A stretch of DNA of 64,000 bases from a virus, in IMG/VR virus record IMGVR_UViG_3300033048_000096; one strand, written 5' to 3'. Each line of letters opens with the position of its first letter. Position 1 is the stretch's first letter. Positions 9,628-32,567 of this stretch are shown piece by piece. The position numbers and the translations under genes are program-made. The notes under the pieces were generated by a model that was given only the letters and a program-made list of their open reading frames with translations, was not told the origin of the DNA and did not search any database.

Positions 9628-11055
9628 TTAAACCTCCTTAAAATATAATCTTTGACCTGCATCGTATATCTTATGCAACTTCTCCGTGTTTATTAGTGAT
9701 TTATCGAAGGTAGACTTCAGATCAGTCCATCTCCAACTTAAAATATCTTTTTCTGCCACAAAACCATTGTTAATTAGAAAATCACCGATCTCATAACGAA
9801 GATCTATCCACGAACTAATCGTAGATATTTCATTATTTTTCTCCAAAAACGAAAGCAGCTTGGAAAAGCCTCCCGCAATTATTACTCCAAGCGCAGAACA
9901 AAATCTTTCAATTTTTAAATGTTTTTTCTTAATTTTATAAGAAATAACACTAACTAGCTCGGAATCATAATATAATCCCATAGCCTCACTTGTGCCTCCT
10001 ATACGTAAACTATTCTCATTTAAAAAAGATAAAGATTTATCCCTACTCACATTTGCGATTTTAACTTCTGATACCTCAATGATTGTGGAGTTACTCATAC
10101 CAATAATAGACTTAATTATCGACGGCTTATTATAAATCTCATCAGACCTAAACTGAAAGATTCGTGAACCAAGCCGTTCATATTTTTTTCTCATATTGAA
10201 ATGGTAATTATTCTCAAGCTTCAATTCTGAGTGCCAATATAATCCGTCAACATTTATGTATGTATTTTCATTTAACTTAAAATCTGGCCTGTATTTTAAC
10301 CCAACCAATCCCTTGTTCCACCTCTTCAGCCCAAATGTATTGCTGAAATACATCTCCAAAGAACTTATTCCATTTTTTGAATCAATATCTAATTCCCTTA
10401 ACCTGCTCTTATCAAGATCCAATAAGTTATCCCACCGATATATTGTGGTGGTAGATACACTTAGCTCTTCTGCCAGCTTTGTAATTGGAATGTTAGATAT
10501 AGTTCTTATATTATTTGATTGTAATATTTTGTCCCTGTGATTAAGCATTAAGCCAGGGTTCTTCACTCCGTATCTATTTTTTAATGTAGAATTAGCTTTC
10601 TCTCTTATTTCATTTGATAACGATGGATGATCAACCCCATACCTCTCACTTAAGGTGATCCTAGCCTTACCCTTAATCTCTTCGCTCTGAAATACATTCT
10701 CTACGCCATACCTCCTTAGGTTCGTAGCTTTCAAGCATTCCTTTATTAAGTTAGAATGCATTGGGGGACTGACTCCATATTTATAACTCAAAGTGTCTTT
10801 GATCTTTTCCTTAACATCTTCGCTCTTAAATGGATTATCAACTCCGTACTTCTCTAGACAAGTCTTCTTTCTTGTTCGTAAAGCAGCCTCATTCTTTTTA
10901 TCTATTGACTTTTTTATTCCAGCCTTATTTAATGCTCTCCTAATTCTTCTCGGAGATACTTTGAACCTCTCAGAGGTGTCCTTTAATGAATTATTTTCAT
11001 TTATGTAAAAAACTACAATACCGCTAAATAACTTATCTGGTATGCTCATTGTCAT
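9628..11055 (-). CDS. putative homing endonuclease: HTH, five 23-aa YGV repeats, second HTH, Vsr/DUF559-like nuclease, GNAT-like C-terminus (Hef-like architecture)
   Basis: SLKDTSERFKVSPRRIRRAL and LAEELSVSTTTIYRW HTHs; RPDF...NVDGLYWH...FRSDE nuclease pattern; IERFCS...GGFSKLL...DLRY...IYDAGQ C-terminal domain. Confidence 0.7.
   Translation of the reverse strand: MTMSIPDKLFSGIVVFYINENNSLKDTSERFKVSPRRIRRALNKAGIKKSIDKKNEAALRTRKKTCLEKYGVDNPFKSEDVKEKIKDTLSYKYGVSPPMHSNLIKECLKATNLRRYGVENVFQSEEIKGKARITLSERYGVDHPSLSNEIREKANSTLKNRYGVKNPGLMLNHRDKILQSNNIRTISNIPITKLAEELSVSTTTIYRWDNLLDLDKSRLRELDIDSKNGISSLEMYFSNTFGLKRWNKGLVGLKYRPDFKLNENTYINVDGLYWHSELKLENNYHFNMRKKYERLGSRIFQFRSDEIYNKPSIIKSIIGMSNSTIIEVSEVKIANVSRDKSLSFLNENSLRIGGTSEAMGLYYDSELVSVISYKIKKKHLKIERFCSALGVIIAGGFSKLLSFLEKNNEISTISSWIDLRYEIGDFLINNGFVAEKDILSWRWTDLKSTFDKSLINTEKLHKIYDAGQRLYFKEV
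10552..10869 (-). repeat. five degenerate 69-bp (23-aa) coding repeats T-x3-[KR]YGV-x-[NPH]
   Basis: KYGVDNP, KYGVSPP, RYGVENV, RYGVDHP, RYGVKNP at 23-residue spacing; boundaries approximate. Confidence 0.85.
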
Positions 11056-12055
11056 AAACTCTCTTCATCTGTTTATATATGCTATCAACCGTCATGTTTG
11101 CGTGCGGAATTAATGAGCCATCCTCACTAAAACTAGATACCTCACAAAGATATTTCGTCTCGTGAGAATTCATGGGCGGAGCATCTGTCGTTACTACAAG
11201 GCACCCAGAAGCGTTCGCCTCAAACAAACTAAGCCCCAAGCCTTCCTTTGATGACGGAGCTACTACACAATCGGTAATTTTATATAAATTAGCTATATCA
11301 TTCCTCGATAGTAGGTTACCATATGTAATAATATTAGTATGCCTATCAATGGTTTTTTTGCTATTTGCGTCATCTATATTTCCGGTAATTAAAAGCTTAA
11401 CATCACTCACTTTATTATTTAATAGCTCAAAAGCTTTAATCACGAGACTCGTGTTTTTAGTGGTGTGGGACGGATTAAGGCTAGCTTGGTGATAAAATGA
11501 AAACACCTTTGATTTAGTTGCTCGATTATCCTCAAAAAATAACTCTCTATCTACGAAATCCCATGAATTCTTATAGACAAGCAAATCATTTTTATAAAAA
11601 ATATCATAAGACTGATCCGTAATCGCCCAAATCTCATCAAATATTTTATATGAACCGTTTTTTATCTTGCTTGGTGATACCCACTCTATCATTGGTATAT
11701 CAATTATCTTTACTCCTGTCTTTATCTTGACTTCATTAATCCACCTGGAAGATTCCATCATTGTCTCCATGGATATAATCAAATCAGCATCATAATCCCT
11801 TGCAGCATCAACGATCTGTGACCCAGAACTTAAGCCGGATTTGAATTGATAAAATAGCTTTCTGTGATCCACGATTCCTTCGAGATACGTTCTGACATAT
11901 CTTCGCTCCCTCTTTATGAACTTTGACTTAGGAATAAACATCACTTGATGCCCATCTTTAATTAGCTTTTTATAAAGACTTAAGCCTAGGTACCATAATC
12001 CTGACTCATGCGCATATGTTTTAATCAGGATTTTCTTCGGTGCTCCTAAGTTCAT
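11033..12055 (-). CDS. GT-B (GT4-like) glycosyltransferase
   Basis: DCVVAPSSKEGLGLSLFEANASGCLVVTTD (E-x7-E motif). Confidence 0.85.
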   Translation of the reverse strand: MNLGAPKKILIKTYAHESGLWYLGLSLYKKLIKDGHQVMFIPKSKFIKRERRYVRTYLEGIVDHRKLFYQFKSGLSSGSQIVDAARDYDADLIISMETMMESSRWINEVKIKTGVKIIDIPMIEWVSPSKIKNGSYKIFDEIWAITDQSYDIFYKNDLLVYKNSWDFVDRELFFEDNRATKSKVFSFYHQASLNPSHTTKNTSLVIKAFELLNNKVSDVKLLITGNIDDANSKKTIDRHTNIITYGNLLSRNDIANLYKITDCVVAPSSKEGLGLSLFEANASGCLVVTTDAPPMNSHETKYLCEVSSFSEDGSLIPHANMTVDSIYKQMKRVYDNEHTR

Positions 12056-12749
12056 TTAATATCTCCCGTCCTCTTGCTTCTTGTTTGATTTCATTTAAAT
12101 TCTTAATATGATTCTTTTGTATATTGGCACGCTGCGTAAGAGAATCTCCCCCGGGAATTATTCGGTAAAAATATAAAATATCATCAATGTAAGTTATTGG
12201 AAATTTTTGAGAAATCTTAACCCACATATCATAGTCTTCGCAGATCCAATACTTCTCATTAAACCCACCTACGCTCAAGAAGGCTTCGCGGCTAATTGTT
12301 ACACTACCTGAAGCTACTAAGTTTTGCTTCATTAATGACTCATAGGTTATGGATACCGGTTTCTTGTAGAATTGACGTTTTAGTCTTCCATTAACTAAAA
12401 TTCTGTAGTTCCCGCAAGTCATTCCTATATCAGGCGTTTTTATAAATTCCCTGACAGAAAGCGCTACTTTGTTTGGTTTCATTACGTCGTCGTCATCTAA
12501 GAAACTTATTAAGTCGCCAGATGTATTATTAATCCCAAAATTCCTAGCACCTCCAGGGCCTAAATTTTTAGGAGTTTTAAGCATGTTAATATTAGGGTAC
12601 ATATCAATAAGATAATCAAGACTCTTGTCAGAACAATCATCGATAACTGTAAGGTTTACTTTGTTGTAAGTTTGAGCCAAGCAACTCTCTATCGCTTTTT
12701 CGATGTTCTTGTCAGGATTATGCGCTGGCATTATAATATCTACACTCAT
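12021..12749 (-). CDS. GT2 family glycosyltransferase
   Basis: SVDIIMPAHN, IDDCS, GPGGARNFG, FLDDDD, EDYDMW; start moved to MSVDII. Confidence 0.92.
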   Translation of the reverse strand: MSVDIIMPAHNPDKNIEKAIESCLAQTYNKVNLTVIDDCSDKSLDYLIDMYPNINMLKTPKNLGPGGARNFGINNTSGDLISFLDDDDVMKPNKVALSVREFIKTPDIGMTCGNYRILVNGRLKRQFYKKPVSITYESLMKQNLVASGSVTISREAFLSVGGFNEKYWICEDYDMWVKISQKFPITYIDDILYFYRIIPGGDSLTQRANIQKNHIKNLNEIKQEARGREILNELRSTEENPD

Positions 12750-12750
12750 T

Positions 12751-13710
12751 TTATACGCAATATTCATAAAGATAACCTCCAGTGACTCCGCTAAAATTAG
12801 CTATAAACTTTTTCCAGGAAAACTCAATAGCCCCTTTTGATAAAGATCTGTAAAGAGCGTCATCTTCCATAATTTCCCTAATGGCAGCGCAATAATCAGG
12901 AACAGTACGATTAGTTATTATTCCAGTCCTATAGTTCTCCCCATTTAAATGAATCTTGGGATGAGTGACAGATGGTATTCCTGCGCAAAATTGCTCCGCG
13001 AGGCCCAAACCCATAGTTTCACTTAGTGAGGTAGAGAAGTAAAGATGACAACTCTTTGCAGATTTAATATGTGACATGTAATCATAAGGCTTTGGGTATC
13101 CTATGAATTCAAATTCATACTCCGGCATAGCTTTTTGAACCTCTAGCGCAAATTTAATGTCCTTAACTGATTGCTTAGAATTTCCCTTCCATAAAATCTT
13201 CCCATTATCCTCTTCTATTGGTGCCCATAAATCCCTGTCCGGGCCGATCATTAATACACCCATCTTATCTAAAGGTATTTTATGCTCTCTGGCAATCTTA
13301 AATTTTAAATGCTCATTGGCTGTTAATATATGATCGTATCTAACTTTTGATAAATAACTACTCTCCAAATCGAAACTAACTGTATCAATAACATTCGGAC
13401 CAATTAGCACTTTAATGTACTCCTGCTTGTTCGCTAAATTTACCGCGTACTCAAATAATAGACCCATCCCACTCCAATGGTGTAGAACGAAAGATCTTTT
13501 AATGGCGCTTCTAAGCTCAGATAAATTAGTTAAAGGAATAGTCCCAGGAAAGTTTGAATTCATCTTTGTGAATACATTTACCTTCACTCCACATTTTTTT
13601 AAGTTTTTTACGAAATTAACTAGACACATACCAGGACCATTAACATATCGTCCGGCATTTCCATAATTAAACGCAATTACTGTAATTTCATCTTCTACAA
13701 TCTCATCCAT
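12751..13710 (-). CDS. GT-B (GT4-like) glycosyltransferase
   Basis: STSLSETMGLGLAEQFCAGIP; GGAG RBS. Confidence 0.75.
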   Translation of the reverse strand: MDEIVEDEITVIAFNYGNAGRYVNGPGMCLVNFVKNLKKCGVKVNVFTKMNSNFPGTIPLTNLSELRSAIKRSFVLHHWSGMGLLFEYAVNLANKQEYIKVLIGPNVIDTVSFDLESSYLSKVRYDHILTANEHLKFKIAREHKIPLDKMGVLMIGPDRDLWAPIEEDNGKILWKGNSKQSVKDIKFALEVQKAMPEYEFEFIGYPKPYDYMSHIKSAKSCHLYFSTSLSETMGLGLAEQFCAGIPSVTHPKIHLNGENYRTGIITNRTVPDYCAAIREIMEDDALYRSLSKGAIEFSWKKFIANFSGVTGGYLYEYCV

Positions 13711-13726
13711 TTAAGTCTCCGAAAAA

Positions 13727-14044
13727 TCAACTATGCTTAATAAATACATCTTCCAAAGATTCTTTCCCGCCAAAACCTATAACCCTATCAATCTCCTTGC
13801 CCCCTCGAAATACTATCAAACAAGGGATGCTTGATACGTTATTAGCTTTGGCAACCTCAGGACTGTCAGATACATTAATCTTCGCAACCTTAATCGTGCC
13901 TTCATATTTGCTAGATAAATCATCAAGCAATGGTGACAAAGCTTTACATGGTCCGCACCACTCTGCCCAAAAATCTACAATCGTTATATCACTCGATGAT
14001 ATAGCTTCAGCTATATTATCTGAATTTAAAATCGTTACTGACAT
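13727..14044 (-). CDS. trxA: thioredoxin
   Basis: VDFWAEWCGPCK active site, SIP cis-Pro, 105 aa. Confidence 0.96.
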   Translation of the reverse strand: MSVTILNSDNIAEAISSSDITIVDFWAEWCGPCKALSPLLDDLSSKYEGTIKVAKINVSDSPEVAKANNVSSIPCLIVFRGGKEIDRVIGFGGKESLEDVFIKHS

Positions 14045-14055: not shown

Positions 14056-14268
14056 TCAGTTAATACTGTAAACACTCATTGACATATCTTCGAGTATCAT
14101 TGATATCACCTCAGCCCGTTCGGTAACTCCCATGGACTCAAAATTATCAAACAATTCTTTTGCGAAATCAATCGCAACTGCGTTTCTTATTTCATCGTCC
14201 GTTGATAAATCCTCATACGCTTCCATTATGTTTATTGACTCTTCAAAATCTTCTTTACTCAGAAACAT
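14056..14268 (-). CDS. small acidic hypothetical protein (about 70 aa)
   Basis: Track ORF 14056..14310; start moved to MFLSKE, which has GGAG 9 nt upstream and less overlap. Confidence 0.6.
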   Translation of the reverse strand: MFLSKEDFEESINIMEAYEDLSTDDEIRNAVAIDFAKELFDNFESMGVTERAEVISMILEDMSMSVYSIN

Positions 14269-14419
14269 CTTTGTCATCTCCGTCATCTTGCTCTGATGAA
14301 CTTTCGTCATCTCTAACTAAGTCATCCACGGTATACCTAACCTTATTATCACCAGACGCATTCTTAATGTTATCACCTGACACAAAGACTTTTATTTCAC
14401 CATTTTTCTTTAATGACAT
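14255..14419 (-). CDS. small hypothetical protein (54 aa, acidic tail), absent from the ORF track
   Basis: Hand-translated MSLKKNGEIKVFVSGDNIKNASGDNKVRYTVDDLVRDDESSSEQDDGDDKDVSE*; AGGAG upstream; fills the gap after gmd. Confidence 0.6.
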   Translation of the reverse strand: MSLKKNGEIKVFVSGDNIKNASGDNKVRYTVDDLVRDDESSSEQDDGDDKDVSE

Positions 14420-14422
14420 TAT

Positions 14423-15415
14423 TCACTGCTCCTTTTTAACTTCTAAATCTTCTAGATCATTCAAATACATTTCTTTTAATAGATCTTTCCACGTATACTT
14501 CGGAACCCAACCAAGCTGGGATTTGGCCTTCTCCGGATTACCTCTTAAATATGGCACCTCAGATGGCCGCATAAACCTAGAATCTTTTTCATACACATCT
14601 TCAAATTTTAGATCCGCTAGCTCACAAACGTACTCAAACATTTCCTTGATCGTCGCGCCCGTTCCTGTTGCTATTAAAAAATCATCAGGCTCATCTCTCT
14701 GAAGCATCAAGTGCATGGCTCTGCAATAATCCTTCGCGTGACCCTCATCCCTAAAAGAACTTAAGTCTCCCATCTTTAAAGAATCTGATATGCCTAGCTT
14801 CACGGACGCTATACCTCTGGTTATCTTTCTGGTCGCAAAATCATGACCACGAACCTTCGAAGAGTGATTATGAAGAATTCCGTTGCATGCATATAAATTA
14901 TAGGCCTCCCTGTAGTTTATAACCGCCCAGTAAGCCGCTAACTTAGCAACTCCATATGGAGACCTAGGGTGAAAGCGGGAACGCTCTGTGTAGCCTTCTG
15001 GGGGGCAAGAGACTCCGCCAAATAATTCACTCGTATTAGCTTGGTAATATCTCGTTGATGGTGATATTTTTCTTATTAACTCAAGCTGAGTTATAACTGC
15101 CTCTGCATTTACCTTAAATGTATAGGCCGGCTCAGCAAATGATTGCCCCACATGACTCATCGCTGCTAAGTTGTAAAACTCATGAGGCCTGTGCTTAAGG
15201 ATAATCCCCGATATTAATGTTGCGTCAGTTATGTCTCCATAAACTAATTTAAAGCTCTTATGTTCTAACAGGTGAACTATATTACCTATGCAGGGATCCA
15301 CGCTCTTTCTTCTGGTGATACCTATAACCATGTACCCTTTTCCCAGCAGTAGCTCAGCTAAATGACTGCCGTCTTGGCCAGCTACCCCAGTGATTACCGC
15401 TTTTTTACTGTACAT
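14423..15415 (-). CDS. gmd: GDP-mannose 4,6-dehydratase
   Basis: ITGVAGQDGSHLAELLL, YNLAAMSHV, TSELFG, PRSPYGVAKL, TRKIT, RPSEV. Confidence 0.95.
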   Translation of the reverse strand: MYSKKAVITGVAGQDGSHLAELLLGKGYMVIGITRRKSVDPCIGNIVHLLEHKSFKLVYGDITDATLISGIILKHRPHEFYNLAAMSHVGQSFAEPAYTFKVNAEAVITQLELIRKISPSTRYYQANTSELFGGVSCPPEGYTERSRFHPRSPYGVAKLAAYWAVINYREAYNLYACNGILHNHSSKVRGHDFATRKITRGIASVKLGISDSLKMGDLSSFRDEGHAKDYCRAMHLMLQRDEPDDFLIATGTGATIKEMFEYVCELADLKFEDVYEKDSRFMRPSEVPYLRGNPEKAKSQLGWVPKYTWKDLLKEMYLNDLEDLEVKKEQ

Positions 15416-15860
15416 TCTCGTCCTCCTCTAACAACTTTAAAATATCTTCCTCAGATCTGATGCTTCTAAAGTTATCATGAATGAACTGTTTGAGACCCAG
15501 CAAATTATCATACGAGCTAATCTTGTTTATATTAAATATAACAAAAGTACGCTCCCTTTCAGTAAATATACTATAATCAAAGAATAAATTTTTATCAATA
15601 ACAAAGGCATAGTCTCTGTTAAAAAACAAACTCTCAAGAATTTTTCTCCTAATTTTATTCAGAAACAAAATTCTGGTTAGCATAGATACGTCACTTAACA
15701 ATTCTGAGTTTATATCCAAAAACTCATGCAAACCTATTTTGCAAGCCTCAGTCATACTAACCTTATCTTCTGTGGCCCTTTCAAAAGACTTAAACTTTAT
15801 ATCATAAAATATTTTTCCTGACATTAATACAGATTTTCCATTTCTTTTTATATGATTCAT
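15405..15860 (-). CDS. hypothetical helical protein (shares a motif with the next two upstream genes)
   Basis: Contains SIFTERERTFVIFNINKI; ATGA overlap. Confidence 0.7.
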   Translation of the reverse strand: MNHIKRNGKSVLMSGKIFYDIKFKSFERATEDKVSMTEACKIGLHEFLDINSELLSDVSMLTRILFLNKIRRKILESLFFNRDYAFVIDKNLFFDYSIFTERERTFVIFNINKISSYDNLLGLKQFIHDNFRSIRSEEDILKLLEEDENVQ

Positions 15861-16216
15861 TCAGCACCCTCATCAAACTCAACACCAGATGATTCAAGCA
15901 GAAATTGCCCGACTTCAAGATTAAACTTCCAATAAGGCCATTTTGATATTTCCTTCAGCCTATGCATGTTGAACAATATGAAATCCTTTTCTACTTTTGC
16001 GAACAAATCAGATTCCATTATTTTACTAAATATTTCTTCCTTATTTATGTTTTCAAGATCATTGACTATAGCTATCCACTGATATCCAGCTCTAAGTAAC
16101 TTTTGACTATTCGAACCTTTATATTGGTGATATGGATCTTTCATCATTTTACTCTTAAGGCGCTCAACTTTTGATATCACATCTTCATGCTTATTCGTTG
16201 CTCTCTTGACTGCCAC
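15857..16216 (-). CDS. hypothetical helical protein
   Basis: Contains DLFAKVEKDFILFNMHRL; GTG start. Confidence 0.7.
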   Translation of the reverse strand: MAVKRATNKHEDVISKVERLKSKMMKDPYHQYKGSNSQKLLRAGYQWIAIVNDLENINKEEIFSKIMESDLFAKVEKDFILFNMHRLKEISKWPYWKFNLEVGQFLLESSGVEFDEGAE

Positions 16217-16219
16217 CTT

Positions 16220-16720
16220 CTATAAACCATCACATTCTTCGGCTAATCCCACTAAATCATCAATTGTAATTTTCTCAGACTCAAATGTGCCTTCCCGAAC
16301 TTTATTGATGGAAAACAAAACATTATTTTTTTCATCTTCCGAAAACAAATGAGAGCTCATTACTTTGCCGAATCCGTCTTCGGAGCTTATGTTCTCAATA
16401 TAGTTACTTTTTACCTCATTAACCACTTTAGCTTTTTGCTCCGGGGACAACAAATCTTCCGATAATAACTTTCTAATCGGTTCTATATTTTTGCTGAATC
16501 TTATCTTGTCAAAGTGAATGCTAACTTCATTGCCATTATATCTTGACAGCACATAATTCATCTCATCTCTACTCATATCAGAGTCAGATAATAGCTTTGC
16601 AACTAACTCTTTGTTTATTCCGGAATTTAACTTCTTTTTATGCACCACTGCAGATGCGGAAGCTCTTATGCGCCTAAGCCTCTCACTCTTCTTTGTTTCT
16701 TCTAGCAAAGTGTCTTTCAT
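16220..16720 (-). CDS. hypothetical helical-repeat protein
   Basis: Contains HLFSEDEKNNVLFSINKV plus two weaker internal copies; GAGGT RBS. Confidence 0.72.
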   Translation of the reverse strand: MKDTLLEETKKSERLRRIRASASAVVHKKKLNSGINKELVAKLLSDSDMSRDEMNYVLSRYNGNEVSIHFDKIRFSKNIEPIRKLLSEDLLSPEQKAKVVNEVKSNYIENISSEDGFGKVMSSHLFSEDEKNNVLFSINKVREGTFESEKITIDDLVGLAEECDGL

Positions 16721-16739
16721 AATAACTACCTCAATTAAT

Positions 16740-19238: not shown

Positions 19239-19248
19239 TGCAAAACTC

Positions 19249-24770: not shown

Positions 24771-25885
24771 TCCGAAACCTTCCTGTTGTCAAACTTTTTT
24801 ATAATATTATATGCTTGGCTAGCTGTTATACATTTGAAATCAACCCCGGCTTTGTCAGATAATAACATTAACCTTTCAAATGCAGATATAACATTCGGGT
24901 GCGAAAATGGAAATATAATCTCATCCCGATTTATATATTCTTCTGACATTGAATGAGCATATGTCTTTATGAAAATAGCATCACCGATCTTCGGGGATTT
25001 AAATAAAAGATTTTCAATAAATCTATTCGTTTCGGAAAGTTGCTCATTAACCGCTGGTGAATAAAAATCCAAAGAACTTAATGGGTGAGTTAGATCCGAA
25101 TTCCAAATGAAAAATCTATTCTTAACTAACAGATCAGTATTTACACTGACCGGCTTAGCTTCGGATGTCGTGTAATCATAATTTCTCCATATATGTGGAG
25201 TCTTACAACTAAAGGGTTTCTTTATGAATGGATCGCATTTTTTACGCCCAGCGGGGAACGTGAAGTCACCCTTACAGCCATTTCTACGCAGTATGTCTAG
25301 CTCAGCATCAATCCTGCACACACCCCTGTCAGAAGCGTTAAGGCCCCACTTGCCGTGGACGAAAAACCACTGAGAAAAACTTTTACCCGAATGCTTTCTG
25401 AGAAACTCTAAACATAATTTTACATACAGATCAAATCTTTTCTCATCCATCCTCATTGTGCTGTTGTTAATTAAATATTTCTTGACATCCTTGGCATACT
25501 TACCCTCATCAGTTGTTGTAAAGTTTTCATGATGAATGTGAAGCTCTAAATCTAGCTCGGTCTTCGATAATATTCTTTCTATATATGATCCTACTTTGTG
25601 TAACTCTGGGGTTTTATAAAAGCCTAAATCATCACCCTCTACATGACTAAAACTATCGTGACTCTTGTCACCGTTAAATCCAACACCAAAGTTAGGCCTA
25701 AGAAATAATGTCATATTTCTAGAATGTGGATACTTCTTTGATTGAAATATGAATTGATTTATAACGTCACTACTAACGCAAGCACTACCGTCCATTGACA
25801 TGGGCTCAAAATGATCAACATGAATATAATAAATCTTTCTTATATTATTAGACCTTAAATATTTTGCCATAGTTCTTATATTCAC
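24767..25885 (-). CDS. putative metal-dependent carbohydrate deacetylase/hydrolase-like protein
   Basis: VDHFEP, ELHIHH, FFVHGKWGL, DFTFP, KTYAH: His/Asp clusters like NodB-fold enzymes; function inferred. Confidence 0.5.
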   Translation of the reverse strand: MNIRTMAKYLRSNNIRKIYYIHVDHFEPMSMDGSACVSSDVINQFIFQSKKYPHSRNMTLFLRPNFGVGFNGDKSHDSFSHVEGDDLGFYKTPELHKVGSYIERILSKTELDLELHIHHENFTTTDEGKYAKDVKKYLINNSTMRMDEKRFDLYVKLCLEFLRKHSGKSFSQWFFVHGKWGLNASDRGVCRIDAELDILRRNGCKGDFTFPAGRKKCDPFIKKPFSCKTPHIWRNYDYTTSEAKPVSVNTDLLVKNRFFIWNSDLTHPLSSLDFYSPAVNEQLSETNRFIENLLFKSPKIGDAIFIKTYAHSMSEEYINRDEIIFPFSHPNVISAFERLMLLSDKAGVDFKCITASQAYNIIKKFDNRKVSE

Positions 25886-26923
25886 TTAAAATACCTCATT
25901 CAATTGTTTTATCAACTTGTTGTTTCCGAACTTAATTGAATGCTCAATCTTTTTTACCTTCAAATGCATTAACTTCGCTATCCACTCGGATTCATTATAA
26001 ATATCACTGCACACAAACTCGGATGGGTATTGCTCATACCAACCGCAATTCTTAGAAACCAATATATTTGAACCAGACATTATTGCCTCTTTTATTACGT
26101 TAGGAGACGCGTCGTAATATGACGTACATATAACAACCTTGCTATTCTGAATTATCTTAATAACTTCATTCTGGGGAATTAATGACTTTATCGTTATATT
26201 TCTTAATCCCGAAAATGAATTTGAATTTCCACCAATAACAATCTTTCTTGAGTTATAAAAAGATTTATTTCTTAATATCTTTTTAGCTAGAGCAGAATTC
26301 TTAACAGACCGATTAAAATTAGAACATATAAACGCAACATCATACTTCCTGTCTTTAAATGGGATTACATTTTTAATCCTCCTATTAAACGCCAAAGAAG
26401 TATCTATAGGTTTATGAATCTTTCCTAAACTTCCGTAATTCTTTATTAACATGCTTCTTGCTTGGGGACTATTTGGTATAACTAAGTCGGATGCCTTTAT
26501 ACAATTATACTCAGCCTGATGAATTATTCCTCGCCTAGATGACAAATGCCTTATTGATGATATCTTATTTTTTGACAACTCTGTCATCTGAGGAGAACCC
26601 GTAACCAGATAAATTATCTTTACATTAGGAAAAATGGACTTTGAATGTATCGGGGCTGCGTAATTTTTACCCATTATAACATCCGGACGGCCTCCTAAAT
26701 GCCTCATCACTACCTTTCTGATTATATTTGGATTGCCTTCTGACGGATCAAATCGCCAAATGCCGCCAATCTTGTCAGGATCGACATTCACCCTCTGACT
26801 CTCGAAGAAAATTCCAGCAACATCATGACCATGATTCCTTAAGTACTTGATTAGGGCAAGTGCATTGGTCGCCGCACCACCGTAGTATGGCCACTGCGTA
26901 CTGGTTATTATTATTTTACTCAC
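25886..26923 (-). CDS. GT-B (GT4-like) glycosyltransferase
   Basis: PYYGGA..GHDV N-terminus, VIPNS, TSYYDASPNVIKEAIMSG. Confidence 0.8.
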   Translation of the reverse strand: MSKIIITSTQWPYYGGAATNALALIKYLRNHGHDVAGIFFESQRVNVDPDKIGGIWRFDPSEGNPNIIRKVVMRHLGGRPDVIMGKNYAAPIHSKSIFPNVKIIYLVTGSPQMTELSKNKISSIRHLSSRRGIIHQAEYNCIKASDLVIPNSPQARSMLIKNYGSLGKIHKPIDTSLAFNRRIKNVIPFKDRKYDVAFICSNFNRSVKNSALAKKILRNKSFYNSRKIVIGGNSNSFSGLRNITIKSLIPQNEVIKIIQNSKVVICTSYYDASPNVIKEAIMSGSNILVSKNCGWYEQYPSEFVCSDIYNESEWIAKLMHLKVKKIEHSIKFGNNKLIKQLNEVF

Positions 26924-26940: not shown

Positions 26941-27822
26941 TCAAACATTAAGTAGGCCCAAAAATGGAACGAAAGCTTTGGCTCTTTTGTTCCATGACCA
27001 ACTCTTAACAATCCGTCCCCTCAAATATTTACCATCAGAGTCAATTTTTATAGGATTTTTTGAGTTATAAATTATCGCATCTCTAAGCTGAGCTTTATTG
27101 CTAACTATATGTATATCCCTATTACCACCAACTAACTCAGGGACATTACCTACCTTGGTTGATATTATAGATCTTCCGCATGATGCAGCCTCCAGTATTG
27201 GGTTTGGTGTTCCCTCCGAAGAGCTGAAGCAAATTACCGTCCCTACCGAGTTGTAAAAACTAACCATCTGCTTTCGGCTAAGACCAGAGCCCGCCTTTGC
27301 TGTTTTTAGAATATACTTCGGACCTAACTTCTTAAAGGTTGAACTAATAACATTAAATCTCTTAACATCTCTGCTATGATTCCCGACCCACCCAAATACA
27401 TTCTTGTGCCTACCGGGGGAGTTTTTACTAACAAATAGATCACTATTAACTCCAAATGATGTATTAAAAACCTTGCCCTTGTAGATCGGCCTAAACTCAT
27501 TATATAATATCTCACTGGAGGTACTTATTGCGTCATACTTATTCAGTAGGCTTGACATTGTTTTTGCGTTTCCCCTACCTATATGACTTGATATAGTTGT
27601 CACCAGTCTATACTTTCGGTTCGAGCTTATAGAACCCTTAATGTATCCGTGAATTGGCCAGTTTAATGAGTAAACTATGTCAAAGTTATTAAAGTTAATG
27701 CTAGGGGTATCATTAAAATGTTTTATAATTACCTCATGAGACTTTAATTGTTTTTTTAAATTTTTTGCACGATTGAATAACGCCCAACTGTAACTATCAA
27801 CTATGCATAATATTTTTGACAC
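26941..27822 (-). CDS. GT4 glycosyltransferase
   Basis: FGV, GWVG, SSSEGTPNPILEAASCG...STKVG, WSW. Confidence 0.88.
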   Translation of the reverse strand: MSKILCIVDSYSWALFNRAKNLKKQLKSHEVIIKHFNDTPSINFNNFDIVYSLNWPIHGYIKGSISSNRKYRLVTTISSHIGRGNAKTMSSLLNKYDAISTSSEILYNEFRPIYKGKVFNTSFGVNSDLFVSKNSPGRHKNVFGWVGNHSRDVKRFNVISSTFKKLGPKYILKTAKAGSGLSRKQMVSFYNSVGTVICFSSSEGTPNPILEAASCGRSIISTKVGNVPELVGGNRDIHIVSNKAQLRDAIIYNSKNPIKIDSDGKYLRGRIVKSWSWNKRAKAFVPFLGLLNV

Positions 27823-28745
27823 TATAAGCTACCCAATACATGTTCCCACCGACTAAGATAATCATCTATATGAAAATGCTTGATTGCAGCCTCTCTAGCT
27901 GCTTTTCCGAAATCCTCTGCTCTTTTCGGCTCCTTAAGTAACCTTCGCATAATTCTAATTAACTCTCCGGAGTCATTACTTAAAAATCCACTTTTGCCAT
28001 TAACTATGTATCTTCCTATATCAAAATTATTTGTAGACACTATTGGGCATCCGCACATCATAGCTTCAGCCCTTGTTCTTGGCATCGCAGAAGATTGAGT
28101 TGTATTAAAATATAAACTATACTTGTTGTAACTGGCTATCAAATCATCTAAGCTTTTAGCCTGCCTGTCGGTCCTGTACATATCTAGGTTTCCATGACCA
28201 ATGACATCAAGATTCTTCATCTTTCTCCTGACAGAAAGCCATAAGGGGTATCCCATTATCTTTGCCCGGCCCTTAAAGACATTAGCTACGGTTAGGACCC
28301 GGCCATTCTTCTCTAACCCTGTTGGTCTGAATTCATTCGGGTCATATCCATGAACGATGTACTTATGAGATTTGCCAGGGTACATATCTTTGCATGCATT
28401 CATTACGTCAACCGAATTCCATATAACATGTTTACATTCTTTCGGCAATCTAAATCCATTAGTAGTTTGCATTATAGCTATAGGAACTGCACCATTTTTT
28501 ATAAAACTAATATATCTTCTTGAATCAATCGGAGACCTTATTATCACCACATCAAATTTGATTTTGTTAGCTATCATATCAGTTGTTAGTGTAATATTAT
28601 CATGAAGAGGTCTGTGTAGAGCGTTCCATTTTGACTTACTCTTTCTAATGCCAGAGATATGAAAGTCGTGATCTAACTTGGAAAACTCATACTGCATTCC
28701 TTGGTGTACATACCAGTCCATTATTTTTAAACGCTTTTTACTCAT
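27822..28745 (-). CDS. GT4-like glycosyltransferase
   Basis: HGYD, YFNTTQSSAMPRTRAEAMMCGCPIVST, NGKSGF. Confidence 0.85.
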   Translation of the reverse strand: MSKKRLKIMDWYVHQGMQYEFSKLDHDFHISGIRKSKSKWNALHRPLHDNITLTTDMIANKIKFDVVIIRSPIDSRRYISFIKNGAVPIAIMQTTNGFRLPKECKHVIWNSVDVMNACKDMYPGKSHKYIVHGYDPNEFRPTGLEKNGRVLTVANVFKGRAKIMGYPLWLSVRRKMKNLDVIGHGNLDMYRTDRQAKSLDDLIASYNKYSLYFNTTQSSAMPRTRAEAMMCGCPIVSTNNFDIGRYIVNGKSGFLSNDSGELIRIMRRLLKEPKRAEDFGKAAREAAIKHFHIDDYLSRWEHVLGSL

Positions 28746-29843
28746 CTATCTGCCTCTTGAAAGTTCTTTTGTTATAATCTTTGATATCTCTTGAACGCTC
28801 ATTGATTCTGCGATTACTTTTGCTCTCTCGCCCTTCGCAGAGTATGACTTGTGATTAGCATACACATCTACGAATAATTTAATCAAGTGCCCAGAACTTG
28901 GATGCGCCCAATTTTGATAACTACCATATAACGAAGACCACTCCATTCCAGATACCGGACCCATCGTATGCTTTATTATATTCGCGGATGTATTATCTAA
29001 ATATTCTGTCACTCCGCCATACTTAGTTACTATAATTTGCTTGCCCATTCTCATAGCATCATGAATAGGCATCCCCCAACCTTCTCCATGATGAGAGCTT
29101 ACGTAACAATCCCCAGTGTTATGTAGAGCCTTAATCTGTCTTGATGGTATCACATCCTTAGCTAAAAATACTGGAGGGTAATACCTTAAGTTTAACTTTC
29201 TTTTTAAATCTAAAATATCTAACTTTATTAAATCCTTCGTGTATCCCGTTATGTTTAATGAATTTACCTTCAATATTAATATCACATTATCGCTCTCACT
29301 AAATGCCTTATAATAAGAGCTTAGTAAAGTTCGCCACCCTTTTCTGTTCTGCCATTGAAAAATTGAGTAAAACTTATAAACATTATCGCCAACAACGTAT
29401 TCGTCTGAAAAATCTGAAGGTACATCTATAAAATCTTCGGTCTCCCAATCGTTGCATGGAGTTGGAACTATTTTTATGGGACCTTTGAACCTGGCTCTAA
29501 CGCAGGCATCTTTGACGAGATTGCACGGCACCCAAAGCTCATTTACTTTATGCAAACTTCTGCTCCAATTTTTAGGCAGCCTGTCAGCTTCCCAATAGAA
29601 ATAACCAATCTTATACGCATTGCTCTTGTGGCGATTATAAGGGGGGCAATGAATGTAAAAATCAATATTCGTGCGCCCTTTGTAATTATTAAGCTGATTT
29701 AAGAATGAAAACTTATCAGCCTTATTAGAAAAGTTAAATTTCGTATTAACTGATGACAAAGAAAATGCCTTCGCGAAATTAGTTACGGCATTACCATATC
29801 CAGTATGATTACTTAGCGGACCAAAAAATCTGACTGCGGACAT
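28746..29843 (-). CDS. GT4-like glycosyltransferase
   Basis: TGYG, WE, RKGWRTLL..YYKAF, HGEGWGMPIHDAM; start moved to MSAV after AGGAG. Confidence 0.88.
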   Translation of the reverse strand: MSAVRFFGPLSNHTGYGNAVTNFAKAFSLSSVNTKFNFSNKADKFSFLNQLNNYKGRTNIDFYIHCPPYNRHKSNAYKIGYFYWEADRLPKNWSRSLHKVNELWVPCNLVKDACVRARFKGPIKIVPTPCNDWETEDFIDVPSDFSDEYVVGDNVYKFYSIFQWQNRKGWRTLLSSYYKAFSESDNVILILKVNSLNITGYTKDLIKLDILDLKRKLNLRYYPPVFLAKDVIPSRQIKALHNTGDCYVSSHHGEGWGMPIHDAMRMGKQIIVTKYGGVTEYLDNTSANIIKHTMGPVSGMEWSSLYGSYQNWAHPSSGHLIKLFVDVYANHKSYSAKGERAKVIAESMSVQEISKIITKELSRGR

Positions 29844-29853
29844 CATCCAACTC

Positions 29854-31422
29854 CTATATATATTCTCCGCGTAACAAAAATGATTTCTCGTTACTACTCT
29901 TCTTATAAAAACCATCTATTGATAAAAGACTATTCATAAATTCCAAATGAACTCTATCTATGTCGTGATTTTTCTCGACATATCTTCTGGCACTTTCTAT
30001 AACTTCTAGATTACTTATATTATCCTCTATTATCAATCTATCCAAACAAGGATCTTCTGTAATCCTAAACCCCGTAATTCCATCCTCAAGCATATCAGGT
30101 ATAGCCCCTACCATATTTGAAAAAACAGGAACCCCAGATGCCATTGACTCAATTATCGAAATAGGAGTTCCCTCTATCTTTGACGCTAATACGAAACCAT
30201 CAAAGATATTATATATACCAGATACATCTTTTTTATATCCAAGCATTTTCACGTTCGTTAACTTTAGTCTATTTATCTCTTTTGATATAGAAATCTTCTC
30301 GGGACCATCACCAACTATCACAAACTCATAATCTGGCATCTCAAATGCTAAAGATATAATATAGCCTATCCGCTTTTCTTTAGATAATCTAGCAACCACT
30401 CCTATTACGGGCTTATACAAATCTATACCTAATGATTCTTTTAATTTGTCATTGTTCCTACTACTAAACTTATCCAAATTAATGCCGACAGGAATCACAT
30501 CCCTATTAGACTCTTTGACTCCAGAAATATCTTTAGATAAACTTCTAGATACAGTAATTATCTTATCAACGAATCTCCTCTCCTTTACGGAAGATAAAGA
30601 ACCCACCCAAATGAAATCGCTATGATAAATCTCAACCAGCTTGCCAGAAATTTCATCGTTAACCTTCATCCTTAATAGTAATGAATATATATCTAAACGA
30701 TTATAATAAACTATATAATCATACTCACTTGATTTTATTATTCCCCTGAGCTGAGACGTGGATTTCACATCCCTATGGAAAACTTCTTTATTTGTTATGT
30801 TGTTTTTAAGATTATTCCGCTTCATATATAATATAGATATATCTTGGTTTGTTAACTTATTTATTATGTTCTGTATGTATATCTCCGCTCCACCATATAT
30901 ATGATAAGGAACTATGAATGCAATTTTTTTGTTACCAGAAATAATCTCCGTATCGATACTCTGAGATTTACTAACTGGCTTCGCCCTTCCGGTCTTTACC
31001 TTTAGGCTAACTCTTCTTCTACTTTTCGATGGCAATTCTTTGACAACAGAATCGCTTAATAAATCAATATAAACTCTGCCCATCTCCACACTTCCGTAGA
31101 CATTTCTGTCTCTATAGAATTTAATCTTCCCTTGTCCGAAATTTCGATTAACCTCAAAACTTAAGCTATATTCCGACCACGTGCTGTTATTGAAATTAAG
31201 CTCTTCCTTTAAGAATATTTCATTTTGATCGCTAGATATTTCAATGTTTATTTTGCCGCTACCAGTTCTTTTCTTCCCAACAATCTTTATTGTATACTTG
31301 CCAGAACGTATATTGATCGCGTGGTCAAATTTTGCAGACTTTAATATGATAATTGAACTAGGCTTAATATCTATGCCCTTACCGCTCCATTTGTTATTCT
31401 TTAAAGAATCGAATATCCTCAT
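29854..31422 (-). CDS. GT4 glycosyltransferase with N-terminal beta-rich (carbohydrate-binding-like) domain
   Basis: YGGAE, VARLSKEK, VGDGPE, EGTPISIIESMASG; about 120-aa beta-rich N-terminus plus basic linker; ATGA overlap at 31419-31422. Confidence 0.88.
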   Translation of the reverse strand: MRIFDSLKNNKWSGKGIDIKPSSIIILKSAKFDHAINIRSGKYTIKIVGKKRTGSGKINIEISSDQNEIFLKEELNFNNSTWSEYSLSFEVNRNFGQGKIKFYRDRNVYGSVEMGRVYIDLLSDSVVKELPSKSRRRVSLKVKTGRAKPVSKSQSIDTEIISGNKKIAFIVPYHIYGGAEIYIQNIINKLTNQDISILYMKRNNLKNNITNKEVFHRDVKSTSQLRGIIKSSEYDYIVYYNRLDIYSLLLRMKVNDEISGKLVEIYHSDFIWVGSLSSVKERRFVDKIITVSRSLSKDISGVKESNRDVIPVGINLDKFSSRNNDKLKESLGIDLYKPVIGVVARLSKEKRIGYIISLAFEMPDYEFVIVGDGPEKISISKEINRLKLTNVKMLGYKKDVSGIYNIFDGFVLASKIEGTPISIIESMASGVPVFSNMVGAIPDMLEDGITGFRITEDPCLDRLIIEDNISNLEVIESARRYVEKNHDIDRVHLEFMNSLLSIDGFYKKSSNEKSFLLRGEYI

Positions 31423-32522
31423 CTCAATTCCAGTATTTTCTTTGCCGCATTTTCCCAAGTAAATTCATTTATTATTCTTAGCGTCTCTTCAGAGAACTCA
31501 TCCTGAAGCTTTTCCTTACTAGAGAAAGCTTTCAGCATTAATTCTGACAAGGAATCTATGATCGGCAAATTTGTTTTCGCACCTTTCGTGGGTATCCAAT
31601 ATTGATATTTATCACCAGCATCTATCTCCCTCACGTCAGCCAGTAATGAATTCTTGTCATTTAAAAAATCTAACTGACCAGTGCATCTGGGAGCTATGAC
31701 TAGTAAATTATCCGCAGCCAAGCCTTCCAGAAGAGGCATTCCAAATCCCTCGGAGGATGACGCACTAACCAAAGCGTCGCATGAATTATATAATGGTATC
31801 ATGCTATCTAATCTATCCTGAACTATCTCTACACGTGGTAAACCGCCCACCTTCCTGTAATGCTTTTTTTGCATAGCTATTATTTGAGTCTTTACGTCAA
31901 CCTCAAATCTATATAGTTTTCTCCCAGGTGTATCAAGCTTCGTTTTTAATACTAAACATACGTCATCCTGCCCGGAAAATGCTCGGTAATATGCGTCAAG
32001 CAAAATATCTATATTCTTCCTGTAATGTGGGATGGAAACATTTAAAAATTTAAAGGAGCTTTTACTGTAAAGAAGATGCTTCGACTTGTCCTTGTAGTCA
32101 TCTAAGGTAATTCCGTGAGGTATCACTATGCATTTCTCCTCCGGCCAACCTGAGTTCACAAACACTTCTTTCGAAAAGTTGCTCGATGGTAAGGCATAAT
32201 CAATGCAATCTATCTTATCTCTCCAAACTGCTGGCAATATGCTCGTCTCGTAATTGTATATTGCCATTCTTATTTTAGAGCCTTTTCTGAATCTAGCAGA
32301 AAAATTTCTTGGGGTAGTATAACAGATATCCATGTCTATATCGCTATTAGTTCTGTCTAATCTGTACTTTAACTCTCTGGGTATCAAAGAATTTCCATTC
32401 GTTGTTTTTAGAAAAAGATTATGATTCATTTTTCTAAATTGTAACAATAAATTTCTCATAACTACTGCCCAGCTATGATGAGTGCCTAGCATGGTTTGCG
32501 ATCTTATATTTATTTCGTTCAT
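31419..32522 (-). CDS. GT4-like glycosyltransferase
   Basis: YET, PSS, IPHG, RKNIDILLDAYYRAF, SEGFGMPLLE, FTWENAA. Confidence 0.9.
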   Translation of the reverse strand: MNEINIRSQTMLGTHHSWAVVMRNLLLQFRKMNHNLFLKTTNGNSLIPRELKYRLDRTNSDIDMDICYTTPRNFSARFRKGSKIRMAIYNYETSILPAVWRDKIDCIDYALPSSNFSKEVFVNSGWPEEKCIVIPHGITLDDYKDKSKHLLYSKSSFKFLNVSIPHYRKNIDILLDAYYRAFSGQDDVCLVLKTKLDTPGRKLYRFEVDVKTQIIAMQKKHYRKVGGLPRVEIVQDRLDSMIPLYNSCDALVSASSSEGFGMPLLEGLAADNLLVIAPRCTGQLDFLNDKNSLLADVREIDAGDKYQYWIPTKGAKTNLPIIDSLSELMLKAFSSKEKLQDEFSEETLRIINEFTWENAAKKILELR

Positions 32523-32538
32523 TTTCCCGCCATATCTA

Positions 32539-32567
32539 ATAATACCCATATCGATAAAAATTATCTA
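32539..32567 (-). promoter_or_regulatory. possible sigma70-type promoter TAGATA-N17-TATTAT at the head of the glycosylation cluster
   Basis: -35-like TAGATA (32562-32567), 17-nt spacer, -10-like TATTAT (32539-32544); AT-rich context makes a chance match possible. Confidence 0.3.

Follow-up and report, generated by a model that had tools for sequence, protein, structure and literature searches.

Gene content of the island

The IMG/VR virus record IMGVR_UViG_3300033048_000096 was analysed over a stretch of 64,000 nucleotides, hereafter the window. A tightly packed block of 26-27 genes occupies positions 11033-32549 on the minus strand. Judged from its genes, this block appears to be the window copy of a glycan-synthesis island that is found throughout a family of uncultured jumbo phages with contigs of ~220-420 kb. 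The family is probably marine. Every plausible open reading frame (ORF) of at least 100 amino acids (aa) in the window lies on the minus strand, the negative GC skew is steady and the GC content is 35-40%. In the direction of transcription, two large unassigned proteins are followed by a 2104-aa protein, a 601-aa protein, a gp25-like protein, baseplate J, a 3286-aa protein and a 1521-aa protein. The glycan block then extends from 32549 to 11033. Beyond it are a homing endonuclease, a tubulin, a UvsW-like helicase and further non-structural genes.

A sequence-only reading of this DNA had counted nine GT-B and one GT2 glycosyltransferase-like proteins. Our searches bear out the count. Eight GT-B glycosyltransferases (GTs) were recovered with Pfam, one of them just under the cut-off, and the ninth was recovered with Atlas. 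The GT-B proteins are labelled GT_a to GT_i.

31419-32549, minus strand: GT_a, GT-B, conserved core (Glyco_trans_1_4, 31.6 bits; phrog_2170, 1.5e-28)
29854-31458, minus strand: GT_b, conserved core (Glycos_transf_1, 82 bits)
28746-29915, minus strand: GT_c, GT-B, conserved core, marker of the phage family (Pfam)
27822-28745, minus strand: GT_d, GT-B, conserved core (Glycos_transf_1, 42.5 bits)
26941-27822, minus strand: GT_e, GT-B (Pfam)
25886-26923, minus strand: GT_f, GT-B (Pfam)
21742-22929, minus strand: GT_g, GT4-like GT-B (no Pfam match; Atlas features 0.98 and structure TM 0.66 to GT4 clusters)
12751-13710, minus strand: GT_h, GT-B, conserved 3′ frame (Glycos_transf_1, 24.8 bits against a cut-off of 26.4 bits; E 1.7e-5)
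12021-12767, minus strand: soluble GT2 (GT-A), conserved 3′ frame (Glycos_transf_2, 95 bits; no hydrophobic segment)
11033-12055, minus strand: GT_i, GT4-type, last gene of the cluster (Glycos_transf_1, 67.9 bits)

The predicted structure of GT_b sets it apart. An AF2 model was built from an 8-sequence alignment (pLDDT 81.5). In this model an N-terminal beta-jelly-roll, resembling a carbohydrate-binding module (CBM), is joined by a disordered basic linker to a GT4 catalytic body. The nearest solved folds, according to Foldseek, are BshA, HepE and PimB′. When the N-terminal domain was modelled alone the pLDDT was 90, and the model matched CBM4/16/36 at Z 12-13. A putative glycan-binding module on a core transferase fits the elongation of an existing chain.

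The genes that would decorate the glycan, or supply its sugars, are as follows.

24767-25885, minus strand: possible polysaccharide deacetylase-like protein, 372 aa (Atlas features 0.94 to 'polysaccharide deacetylase family' clusters)
24162-24770, minus strand: probable S-adenosylmethionine (SAM) methyltransferase, 202 aa (motif I EPGTGF; PDB 3sm3 at E 0.31, weak)
23477-24169, minus strand: sulfotransferase 1 (Sulfotransfer_3, Stf0 and Sulfotransfer_1 over Pfam cut-offs)
22929-23480, minus strand: sulfotransferase 2 (Sulfotransfer_2, 43.9 bits, over the cut-off)
20985-21749, minus strand: sulfotransferase-like protein 3 (Sulfotransfer_3 at only 16.9 bits; RSGHH loop near the N-terminus and RDPxNxxxS)
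20177-20980, minus strand: class I SAM methyltransferase (Methyltransf_11, 24.8 bits, over the cut-off)
19249-20187, minus strand: GSCFA-family protein (PF08885, 147 bits)
18435-19274, minus strand: truncated UDP-sugar dehydrogenase-like protein (Pfam N-terminal and central domains only)
17448-18383, minus strand: short-chain dehydrogenase/reductase (SDR) epimerase, TviC/GalE-like (Epimerase, 202 bits; TviC and GalE models best)
14423-15415, minus strand: Gmd, GDP-mannose 4,6-dehydratase (PF16363, 341 bits; TIGR01472, 344 bits)

Three sulfotransferase-like proteins had been named beforehand. Two of these stand, over Pfam cut-offs and in different families. The third is weak by profile search. 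In its sequence, RSGHH and RDPxNxxxS were read as the motifs that would bind 3′-phosphoadenosine-5′-phosphosulfate (PAPS), namely the 5′-phosphosulfate-binding loop (5′-PSB) and the 3′-phosphate-binding motif (3′-PB). Motifs of the PAPS-loop type are also visible in sulfotransferases 1 and 2. Homologues of the third protein were found in the related phages G003, G008, G009 and G010 (relatives are introduced in the next section). The presence of three sulfotransferases of different types implies sulfation at several positions. No adenosine 5′-phosphosulfate (APS) kinase was found in the five relatives searched. Hence, PAPS must come from the host.

The two methyltransferases named by the sequence-only reading fared differently; that at 20177-20980 is clear and that at 24162-24770 is only probable. 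The deacetylase-like protein is kept as a lead on the basis of its Atlas feature match, and the 372-aa ORF had no match in Pfam, NCBIfam or PHROGs. For Gmd, the SDR epimerase, the GSCFA protein and the UDP-sugar dehydrogenase the assignments were confirmed by Pfam, with the amendment that the dehydrogenase is truncated.

Gmd is present in all relatives with full clusters. The product of this enzyme is GDP-4-keto-6-deoxymannose. No dedicated reductase that would follow Gmd is obvious in the cluster, unless the SDR epimerase does that step. In G002, the Gmd gene (L015:13723-15867) contains a LAGLIDADG-containing insertion and encodes 714 aa versus 330.

In the dehydrogenase a Rossmann fold and the catalytic motif GGNCFxKD are retained, but the C-terminal UDP-binding domain is missing in its entirety. 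Consistent with this, the alignment with PDB 4a7p stops at about residue 302 of 446. A short form of the protein, of 262-283 aa, was found in every relative examined, which argues that the gene is not broken. Hence, we take the short form to be a functional mini-enzyme and not a pseudogene. In relatives with full clusters the epimerase gene follows that of the dehydrogenase directly, or within two small ORFs. The pairing of a dehydrogenase with a TviC/GalE-like epimerase suggests a uronic-acid sugar nucleotide.

The GSCFA protein is 59-63% identical in G002 and G003. We presume that it has an SGNH-like fold, and it may act as a glycan esterase or acyltransferase. In a search of 185,579 species genomes, its bacterial counterparts amounted to a single match of 59% identity, on an 8.3-kb contig (CAYVBB010000054.1) from a metagenome-assembled genome (MAG).

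The remaining genes of the block, given below, have no evident place in glycan synthesis.

15405-17447, minus strand: four ORFs of 235, 166, 119 and 151 aa (sub-threshold PHROG match only)
14056-14310, minus strand: conserved 84-aa ORF, kept in G003
13727-14044, minus strand: thioredoxin (Thioredoxin, 89.7 bits), inside the cluster in G003, G007 and G008

Among the four ORFs at 15405-17447, only that of 119 aa has a homologue, which is a weak one in G003. Neither 16740-17447 nor 15405-16720 gave anything informative in Pfam or PHROGs, and the same was true of NCBIfam and PDB for 16740-17447.

A constant frame and a variable centre

Relatives of the locus were recovered by IMG/VR pattern scans with baseplate J and with an alignment of GT_c. 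G002 is a genome of 335,169 bp with direct terminal repeats. G008 (395 kb), G011 (332 kb) and G009 (317 kb) have CheckV completeness of 100%, 99% and 94%, respectively, and G010 is partial. G011 carries the label provirus in IMG/VR. Pattern scans of viral contigs with the GSCFA protein alone, or with the 1521-aa protein alone, returned no related locus, and a scan with tubulin alone returned one. Letter-for-letter copies of window genes were found on several independent assemblies, in contigs of up to 238,913 bp.

Gene-by-gene BLAST against the window revealed a common frame. It consists of the 3286-aa gene, the 1521-aa gene, GT_a-GT_b-GT_c-GT_d, a variable stretch, GT_h, the GT2 gene (in most relatives), GT_i, tubulin and helicase. 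This frame was found in G002, G003 and G007-G011. The order from the 3286-aa gene through the 1521-aa gene to GT_a-GT_d is kept in at least eight distinct contigs, with 43-69% protein identity. Throughout the family, the cluster lies between the tail genes and tubulin. A cellular origin, or a chimeric join at 32.5 kb, had been raised as a possible flaw of the contig. This is ruled out by synteny; the junction between the 1521-aa gene and the first GT gene recurs in at least eight distinct related contigs, including the 335-kb genome with terminal repeats.

The seven GTs of the frame are 35-69% identical across relatives, in phages with a GC content of 34-44%. GT_a is 53-66% identical across all relatives, GT_d comes after GT_c in all of them, and GT_h is 44-53% identical in all. 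Homologues of GT_c form 244 clusters at E<=1e-20. They were encountered exclusively on contigs of phage size, and the longest contig among the 120 best measures 422 kb. No match to GT_c was found in 185,579 representative bacterial and archaeal species genomes. A core gene that no member of the family lacks is more readily explained by an intrinsic function of the phage than by an accessory role in host manipulation.

Two public bins give related sequences a cellular label. These are the 8.3-kb contig with the GSCFA gene (L086, CAYVBB010000054.1) and a GT_c homologue, P0230, named 'Candidatus Pacearchaeota archaeon'. In both cases a phage contig has probably been binned into a MAG by mistake.

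A more distant group of phage contigs (L050:3884-15681; L049, L051-L055) contains a GT_c homologue of 26-32% identity after genes for DNA polymerase B and a clamp-loader-like AAA protein. The next gene is CmcI/rhamnosyl-O-methyltransferase-like. In this group the glycan island adjoins the replication module, not the tail module.

Between the conserved ends the gene content changes. The interval from GT_a to tubulin measures from ~18 kb (G007, G010) to ~44 kb (G011); that of the window, at 21.5 kb, is in the lower part of this range. The hypervariable centre of ~10-35 kb holds sulfotransferases, methyltransferases and nonulosonic-acid or 3-deoxy-D-manno-octulosonic acid (Kdo) modules. Every fully read cluster has the short dehydrogenase, the epimerase and Gmd, at shifting positions within the variable stretch. 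Most tailoring genes of the window are common to G003. Orthologues of GT_e and GT_f were found only in G003, G007 and L043, and G002 has paralogues of GT_e. The centre of G002 has instead another GT, a sulfatase-superfamily protein, a Sulfotransfer_1 protein that is not orthologous to those of the window, a nucleotidyltransferase, DUF711, a different methyltransferase and an asparagine-synthase-like protein.

A census was made of 83 unassigned ORFs from five further clusters. The assignments included CMP-sugar-type cytidylyltransferases (4), NeuB (3), DegT-type aminotransferases (3), SIS isomerases (3), KdsA-type synthases (2), phosphomannomutase (2), hexapeptide acyltransferases (2), GT29 sialyltransferase-like proteins (2) and several methyltransferase families, FkbM among them. 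Members of the family thus appear, from their gene content, to cap a common core with differing outer sugars: sulfated and methylated hexoses in the window, nonulosonic-acid or Kdo-type sugars elsewhere. Conserved ends with an exchanged centre form a pattern that fits diversifying selection on an exposed glycan.

The island is entered from the tail module. The relevant genes of this flank are as follows.

50386-50817, minus strand: gp25-like sheath initiator (homology)
47059-50373, minus strand: baseplate J (homology)
37190-47050, minus strand: 3286-aa acidic tail-module protein with a Laminin_G_3 domain, a non-enzyme of the flank
32585-37150, minus strand: 1521-aa acidic protein directly upstream of the cluster (no match in Pfam, PHROGs, PDB or INPHARED)

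The sequence-only reading had placed the cluster immediately after giant, acidic, Ser/Thr-rich baseplate proteins. The adjacency holds, with a gap of 35 nt between the 1521-aa gene and the cluster, and so does the acidity (D+E 14%, K+R 7-8%). The Ser/Thr content is moderate, at 18-23% in the giant upstream proteins compared with 10-15% in the enzymes of the cluster. Homology to baseplate proteins is limited to baseplate J and the gp25-like protein and is missing for the adjoining giants. Homologues of the 3286-aa protein, 47-65% identical, are the upstream neighbour in all relatives and at the same position. The 1521-aa protein precedes GT_a in every relative and is a candidate fibre or peripheral baseplate protein, and a candidate acceptor for the glycan. 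Further upstream, the hydrophobic segments of the 2104-aa tail-module protein are clustered centrally, as in a tape-measure protein.

Compared with INPHARED, baseplate J matched Bacillus phage G best, with 29% identity over 27% of its length. Tubulin had no match in INPHARED, and GT_c had only matches of 22-24% to GTs of Streptomyces phages. By these comparisons the phage backbone is not related to that of T4-like phages, and INPHARED contains no cultured relative. Two possible identities of the family, the moraphages (PMC12619734) and the marine jumbo groups described in PMC9123017, were considered and set aside, for lack of a link by accession or feature.

Site of assembly and acceptor

We searched for the means by which a glycan could be primed and exported. 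None of the ORFs in the window cluster reaches a Kyte-Doolittle 19-mer mean of 1.6, and no membrane segment was detected. The sequence-only reading was therefore right to see no multi-pass membrane protein in the cluster; there were none in the clusters of five relatives either. A priming transferase was not found in the window cluster with Pfam or by hydrophobicity. Profile searches for export and priming genes covered four relatives that are at least 94% complete, plus the partial G010, and positive controls were recovered. Wzx (PF01943) and Wzy_C (PF04932) were absent from these five genomes, and WecA/MraY-type transferases (PF00953) gave only a sub-threshold match full of stop codons. Bac_transf (PF02397) had no match in G002 or G007-G011. 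Six-frame hydrophobicity scans of the complete genomes G002 and G008 returned no ORF with at least six segments. ORFs with at least four segments were limited to the tape-measure protein and an ORF of ~210 aa with 4-5 segments. The latter encodes an M50 (site-2 protease-like) peptidase in G002 (L020:6182-6841), with a counterpart at 205950-206570 in G008. Hence, the premise of an island without export genes holds for the relatives at genome scale, since neither wzx nor wzy was found in the four that are at least 94% complete.

The downstream boundary of the island provides a second line of evidence.

9628-11055, minus strand: homing endonuclease, a selfish element outside the pathway (phrog_3339, 3.7e-41; DUF7487)
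8224-9627, minus strand: TubZ/PhuZ-like phage tubulin (Tubulin and TubZ-like_C domains), the conserved downstream boundary

The homing endonuclease separates GT_i from tubulin in the window and is absent from this position in G001, G002, G003 and G007. In G001, G009 and G010, GT_i and tubulin are encoded by one ORF of 801-825 aa (L001:5382-7787; L060:713-3136, minus strand; L064:465-2939, minus strand). In a collection of 5.8 billion proteins, 54 of the 120 best tubulin homologue clusters are such fusions, of ~800 aa, with PF00534 joined to PF00091. The sources of these fusions are JGI, ENA, Logan, NCBI and Tara. The GT4 motif E-x7-E is invariant in nine aligned forms of GT_i, both fused and unfused, and 43 of the 54 fusions have its strict form. 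On a FastTree phylogeny of the tubulin domain, 11 changes between the fused and unfused states are required, and at least nine if only well-supported branches are considered, a count that may include differences in gene calling. We found no paper on a GT-tubulin fusion, or on any other enzyme-tubulin fusion in phages, in the literature searched. The fusion would put at least one enzyme of the locus on or beside a cytoplasmic filament, so that a pathway bound to the membrane and linked to lipid becomes less likely for this step. The fusion may thus be counted as independent support for a cytoplasmic acceptor.

Other selfish elements are scattered over the locus and its flanks. Besides the homing endonuclease of the window and the insertion in the Gmd gene of G002, a large insertion lies in the helicase gene of G001 (L001:7851-10388), which encodes 845 aa compared with 492 aa in the window.

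A cytoplasmic acceptor, as proposed by the sequence-only reading, is well supported by the missing export and priming genes in relatives that are at least 94% complete and by the frequent fusion of GT_i to tubulin. Since no priming transferase, flippase, polymerase or transporter was found, and since GT_i is often joined to tubulin, we favour assembly of the glycan in the cytoplasm directly on a phage protein, most likely a virion surface protein. We hold this reading with slightly more doubt than belief. Within it, a virion protein is the leading candidate acceptor. The frame of seven GTs is kept across phages of 34-44% GC with probably different hosts, and this implies a constant acceptor supplied by the phage. 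The variable outer part implies exposure to a selective agent outside, which fits the surface of a particle. Mycobacteriophages and giant viruses offer experimental precedents for a virion acceptor. One argument made earlier for a tail acceptor has to be dropped; the cluster shares a strand with the tail genes, and this is uninformative because ~90% of the large ORFs in a complete relative lie on one strand.

In outline, soluble enzymes would draw on sugar nucleotides and PAPS of the host. The phage would supply a GDP-6-deoxyhexose precursor through Gmd and, probably, a uronic-acid nucleotide through the dehydrogenase-like protein and the TviC/GalE-like epimerase. A constant inner oligosaccharide would be built by GT_a-GT_d, at the 5′ end and including the transferase with a carbohydrate-binding-type module, together with GT_h, GT2 and GT_i at the 3′ end. 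The quickly exchanged genes of the middle would then add lineage-specific outer sugars and decorations. For the window, the middle set predicts further hexosyl transfers, three kinds of sulfation and O- or N-methylation. The deacetylase-like and GSCFA proteins may also remove acetyl groups or edit acyl groups. Candidate acceptors are the neighbouring giant tail-module proteins or the capsid, and the glycan would leave the cell as part of the particle. We infer the order of steps, the sugars, the acceptor and the cytoplasmic site from the genes.

Several observations weigh against a glycan of the virion. No acceptor was identified. The giant tail-module proteins have no 25-residue stretch with at least 56% Ser/Thr, and hence no mucin-like tracts. 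Ser/Thr-rich 25-mers were likewise absent from minus-strand ORFs of the window and plus-strand ORFs of G002 of at least 80 aa, a scan for which the capsid and tail-tube genes of the window phage lie outside the window. Adjacency to the tail genes is weak evidence, for the tubulin and replication module is joined to the cluster no less closely, and in the distant group the GT_c homologue adjoins the genes for DNA polymerase B and clamp loader. The Foldseek neighbours of GT_b are generic GT4 enzymes that act on small molecules, lipids, polysaccharides and proteins. Since GT4 enzymes take acceptors of all these classes, the fold is uninformative on this point. A phage without exporters could still use priming on host undecaprenyl phosphate (Und-P) and host export. 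Scans for promoter and terminator consensus sequences did not rise above shuffled controls, leaving the limits of the operon without a signal. Finally, one sequence motif, described next, hints that the 3′ half of the cluster may be expressed like replication-type genes and not like late genes.

The motif is an exact 13-mer, GGTATAATATACT, with a perfect -10 hexamer inside. It occurs only twice in the window, at 18414-18426 and 8164-8176 on the minus strand. Both copies are intergenic and on the coding strand, one upstream of the epimerase gene and the other upstream of the helicase gene. The 13-mer is a candidate for a promoter common to the two genes and suggests that transcription also starts inside the glycan cluster. 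In G008, a similar but non-identical motif precedes a 483-aa ORF ~3 kb downstream of tubulin, at the position that the helicase has elsewhere. A second, AT-rich element, TCTATTA(A)TTTTTAA, precedes the 1521-aa gene (37172-37186) and the gp25-like gene (50845-50859) on the minus strand, and is possibly of late-promoter type. It was not found unchanged in G002 or G008, and neither intergenic motif is carried over cleanly to these two genomes. A perfect 12/12 σ70 consensus (TTGACA, 17 nt, TATAAT) lies inside GT_g at 21859-21887 on the minus strand, ~110 nt ahead of the gene for sulfotransferase-like protein 3.

Expression of part of the cluster before the late phase, at which the sharing of GGTATAATATACT with the helicase promoter region hints, would suit a role in the host envelope. 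The enzymes would then extend or re-decorate a lipid-linked or surface glycan of the host (O-antigen, capsule, teichoic acid or S-layer) on the side of the membrane that faces the cytoplasm. By way of priming, flipping and ligation by the host, the altered glycan would then be displayed on the cell, so that competing phages could not superinfect it or progeny would not adsorb again to lysing cells. GT-rich clusters of pelagimyophages and cyanophages have been interpreted in this way (PMC7029224; PMC9123017). The sugars of the relatives (6-deoxyhexose, uronic acid, Kdo-like and nonulosonic acids) are typical of lipopolysaccharide (LPS) and capsule loci, and a hypervariable centre is expected from an arms race over a cell-surface glycan. 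Peripheral GT4 and GT2 enzymes that act on acceptors linked to undecaprenyl diphosphate (Und-PP) are soluble or monotopic; the missing transmembrane segments are compatible with this. Against such a role, a frame of seven GTs at 35-69% identity over phages of 34-44% GC implies a constant acceptor, which a host glycan would not be. None of the four near-complete relatives encodes a priming, flippase, polymerase, ligase or Gtr-type membrane component, and GT_i is fused to a protein of a cytoplasmic filament. Moreover, a complex new repeat unit would have to pass the Wzx and Wzy proteins of a cell infected by a lytic jumbo phage. Wzx and Wzy are often substrate-selective. On balance, we regard remodelling of the host envelope as unlikely, although a serious contender.

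The fusion with tubulin could also be read to mean that the glycan stays in the cell. The acceptor would then be the tubulin filament, another intracellular phage structure such as a replication compartment, or a cytoplasmic protein of the host; alternatively, the product would be a free sulfated and methylated oligosaccharide or glycoconjugate. The cytoplasmic methylated polysaccharides of mycobacteria are a loose parallel. The fusion is frequent and has been repeatedly gained or broken, all enzymes are soluble, and the carbohydrate-binding-type module of GT_b fits the elongation of a free or polymeric glycan. The methylmannose-polysaccharide mannosyltransferase (7qsg) is among the structural neighbours of GT_b. 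Conversely, hypervariable tailoring is hard to explain for an intracellular product without a partner outside the cell, and we know of no sulfated cytoplasmic glycan in bacteria or phages. Only a single GT out of ten takes part in the fusion, which may have more to do with localisation than with the choice of substrate. A product of this kind strikes us as improbable.

A variant that unites filament and particle can be drawn from the same data. Here, the tubulin filament carries a GT, or is one, and particle proteins or capsids would be glycosylated while moving along it. The conserved inner glycan would be capped with lineage-specific sulfated, methylated or nonulosonic-acid decorations. If true, virions would be coated with a hypervariable glycocalyx, which would influence host range or act as a shield. 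We think cytoskeleton-coupled glycosylation in this strict form rather improbable.

Finally, the sugars might be placed on DNA, with an oligosaccharide on a modified phage base that serves to evade restriction. Phage GTs that add several sugars to DNA are known, according to the account given in a later paper (Pyle et al. 2024, cited in PMC12619734). A DNA alpha-glucosyltransferase cluster is also found among the Atlas feature neighbours of GT_g, at a low rank (26). However, the complete relative G002 has no ThyA-family (PF00303) dCMP/dUMP hydroxymethylase, which weakens this alternative to the protein-borne glycan put forward in the sequence-only reading. A search for Tet_JBP gave no match in five relatives, and its positive control was not recovered either. 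The nonulosonic-acid and Kdo modules of relatives, with a GT29 sialyltransferase, point to glycan acceptors. To our knowledge, ten GTs with sulfation, methylation and a CBM-bearing GT exceed any DNA glycan. We consider hypermodification of DNA very improbable.

Relation to known glycosylation systems

Large GT islands beside tail genes are common in uncultured aquatic phages, and the usual reading is a change of host O-antigen. The conserved frame, the missing export and priming genes and the fusion of a GT to a filament protein turn a glycan made in the cytoplasm on a phage protein into a concrete hypothesis. Sulfated, methylated or sialic-acid-like glycans on virions, if they exist, would matter for host range, for how readily particles stick together and sink in the sea, and for their recognition by grazers and immune systems. 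Self-glycosylation in the style of giant viruses would then be known from bacteriophages as well. No sulfated virion glycan of a phage turned up in the literature searched. The GT-tubulin fusion is a new lead on the role of phage tubulins outside the phiKZ group.

The closest functional parallel is in mycobacteriophages. There, phage GTs glycosylate capsid and tail-tube proteins (Freeman et al. 2023, as cited in PMC12619734). These phages resemble the window in having phage-encoded soluble GTs, no export machinery and genes near the structural module. In mycobacteriophages the glycan is made in the cytoplasm and is later found on structural proteins of the particle, as proposed here for the window family. 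The mycobacteriophage acceptors are reported to be defined C-terminal regions of capsid and tail-tube subunits, identified by mass spectrometry, and the GTs number two to four compared with ten in the window. Soluble GTs linked to a structural module were found at the window locus too, the other end of which is equally tied to tubulin. There is no sequence relationship between the two sets of GTs beyond the GT-B superfamily, and the capsid gene of the window phage lies outside the window. We know of no sulfation in mycobacteriophage virion glycosylation.

By position, the locus is most like the host recognition cluster (HRC) of pelagimyophages and cyanomyophages and the 'LPS' clusters of jumbo cyanophages. 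These are GT-rich, and the authors who described the HRC favour modification of the host O-chain (PMC7029224; PMC9123017). Like the window island, they are large hypervariable islands at the tail-fibre region of big, marine, uncultured myophages, and both are rich in GTs and sugar-nucleotide genes. The HRC belongs to T4-like phages, lies between vrlC and gp14, is mixed with fibre genes and is dominated by GT8 (PMC7029224). In contrast, the window island is on a non-T4 backbone between the tail module and tubulin/helicase, has a frame of seven GTs and ends in a tubulin-coupled GT.

Bacterial O-antigen and capsule loci share much of the gene content. They have GT4, GT2, Gmd, Ugd-like and epimerase genes, nonulosonic-acid and Kdo modules and tailoring transferases, and conserved ends surround a hypervariable centre in both. 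The window family differs in that no priming phosphoglycosyltransferase, flippase, polymerase, chain-length regulator or ABC transporter was found in the window cluster or in the relatives searched.

Among viruses of eukaryotes, chloroviruses (N-glycans of the PBCV-1 capsid) and mimiviruses (fibril glycans) use virus-encoded soluble GTs, Gmd-type enzymes and sugar methyltransferases. The glycans of these giant viruses are complex and specific to clades and are built in the cytoplasm on particle proteins; as at the window locus, the gene clusters vary between lineages. They differ in their eukaryotic hosts, show no sequence kinship with the window, and have glycans and acceptors that were solved chemically. 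We are aware of no sulfate in giant-virus glycans.

Taken together, the locus works like the HRC, mycobacteriophage and giant-virus systems and belongs to none of them. The present case contributes a conserved frame around a hypervariable centre throughout a phage family, the absence of export genes at the level of complete related genomes, a core GT with a CBM, a conserved truncated dehydrogenase and the fusion of a GT to tubulin.

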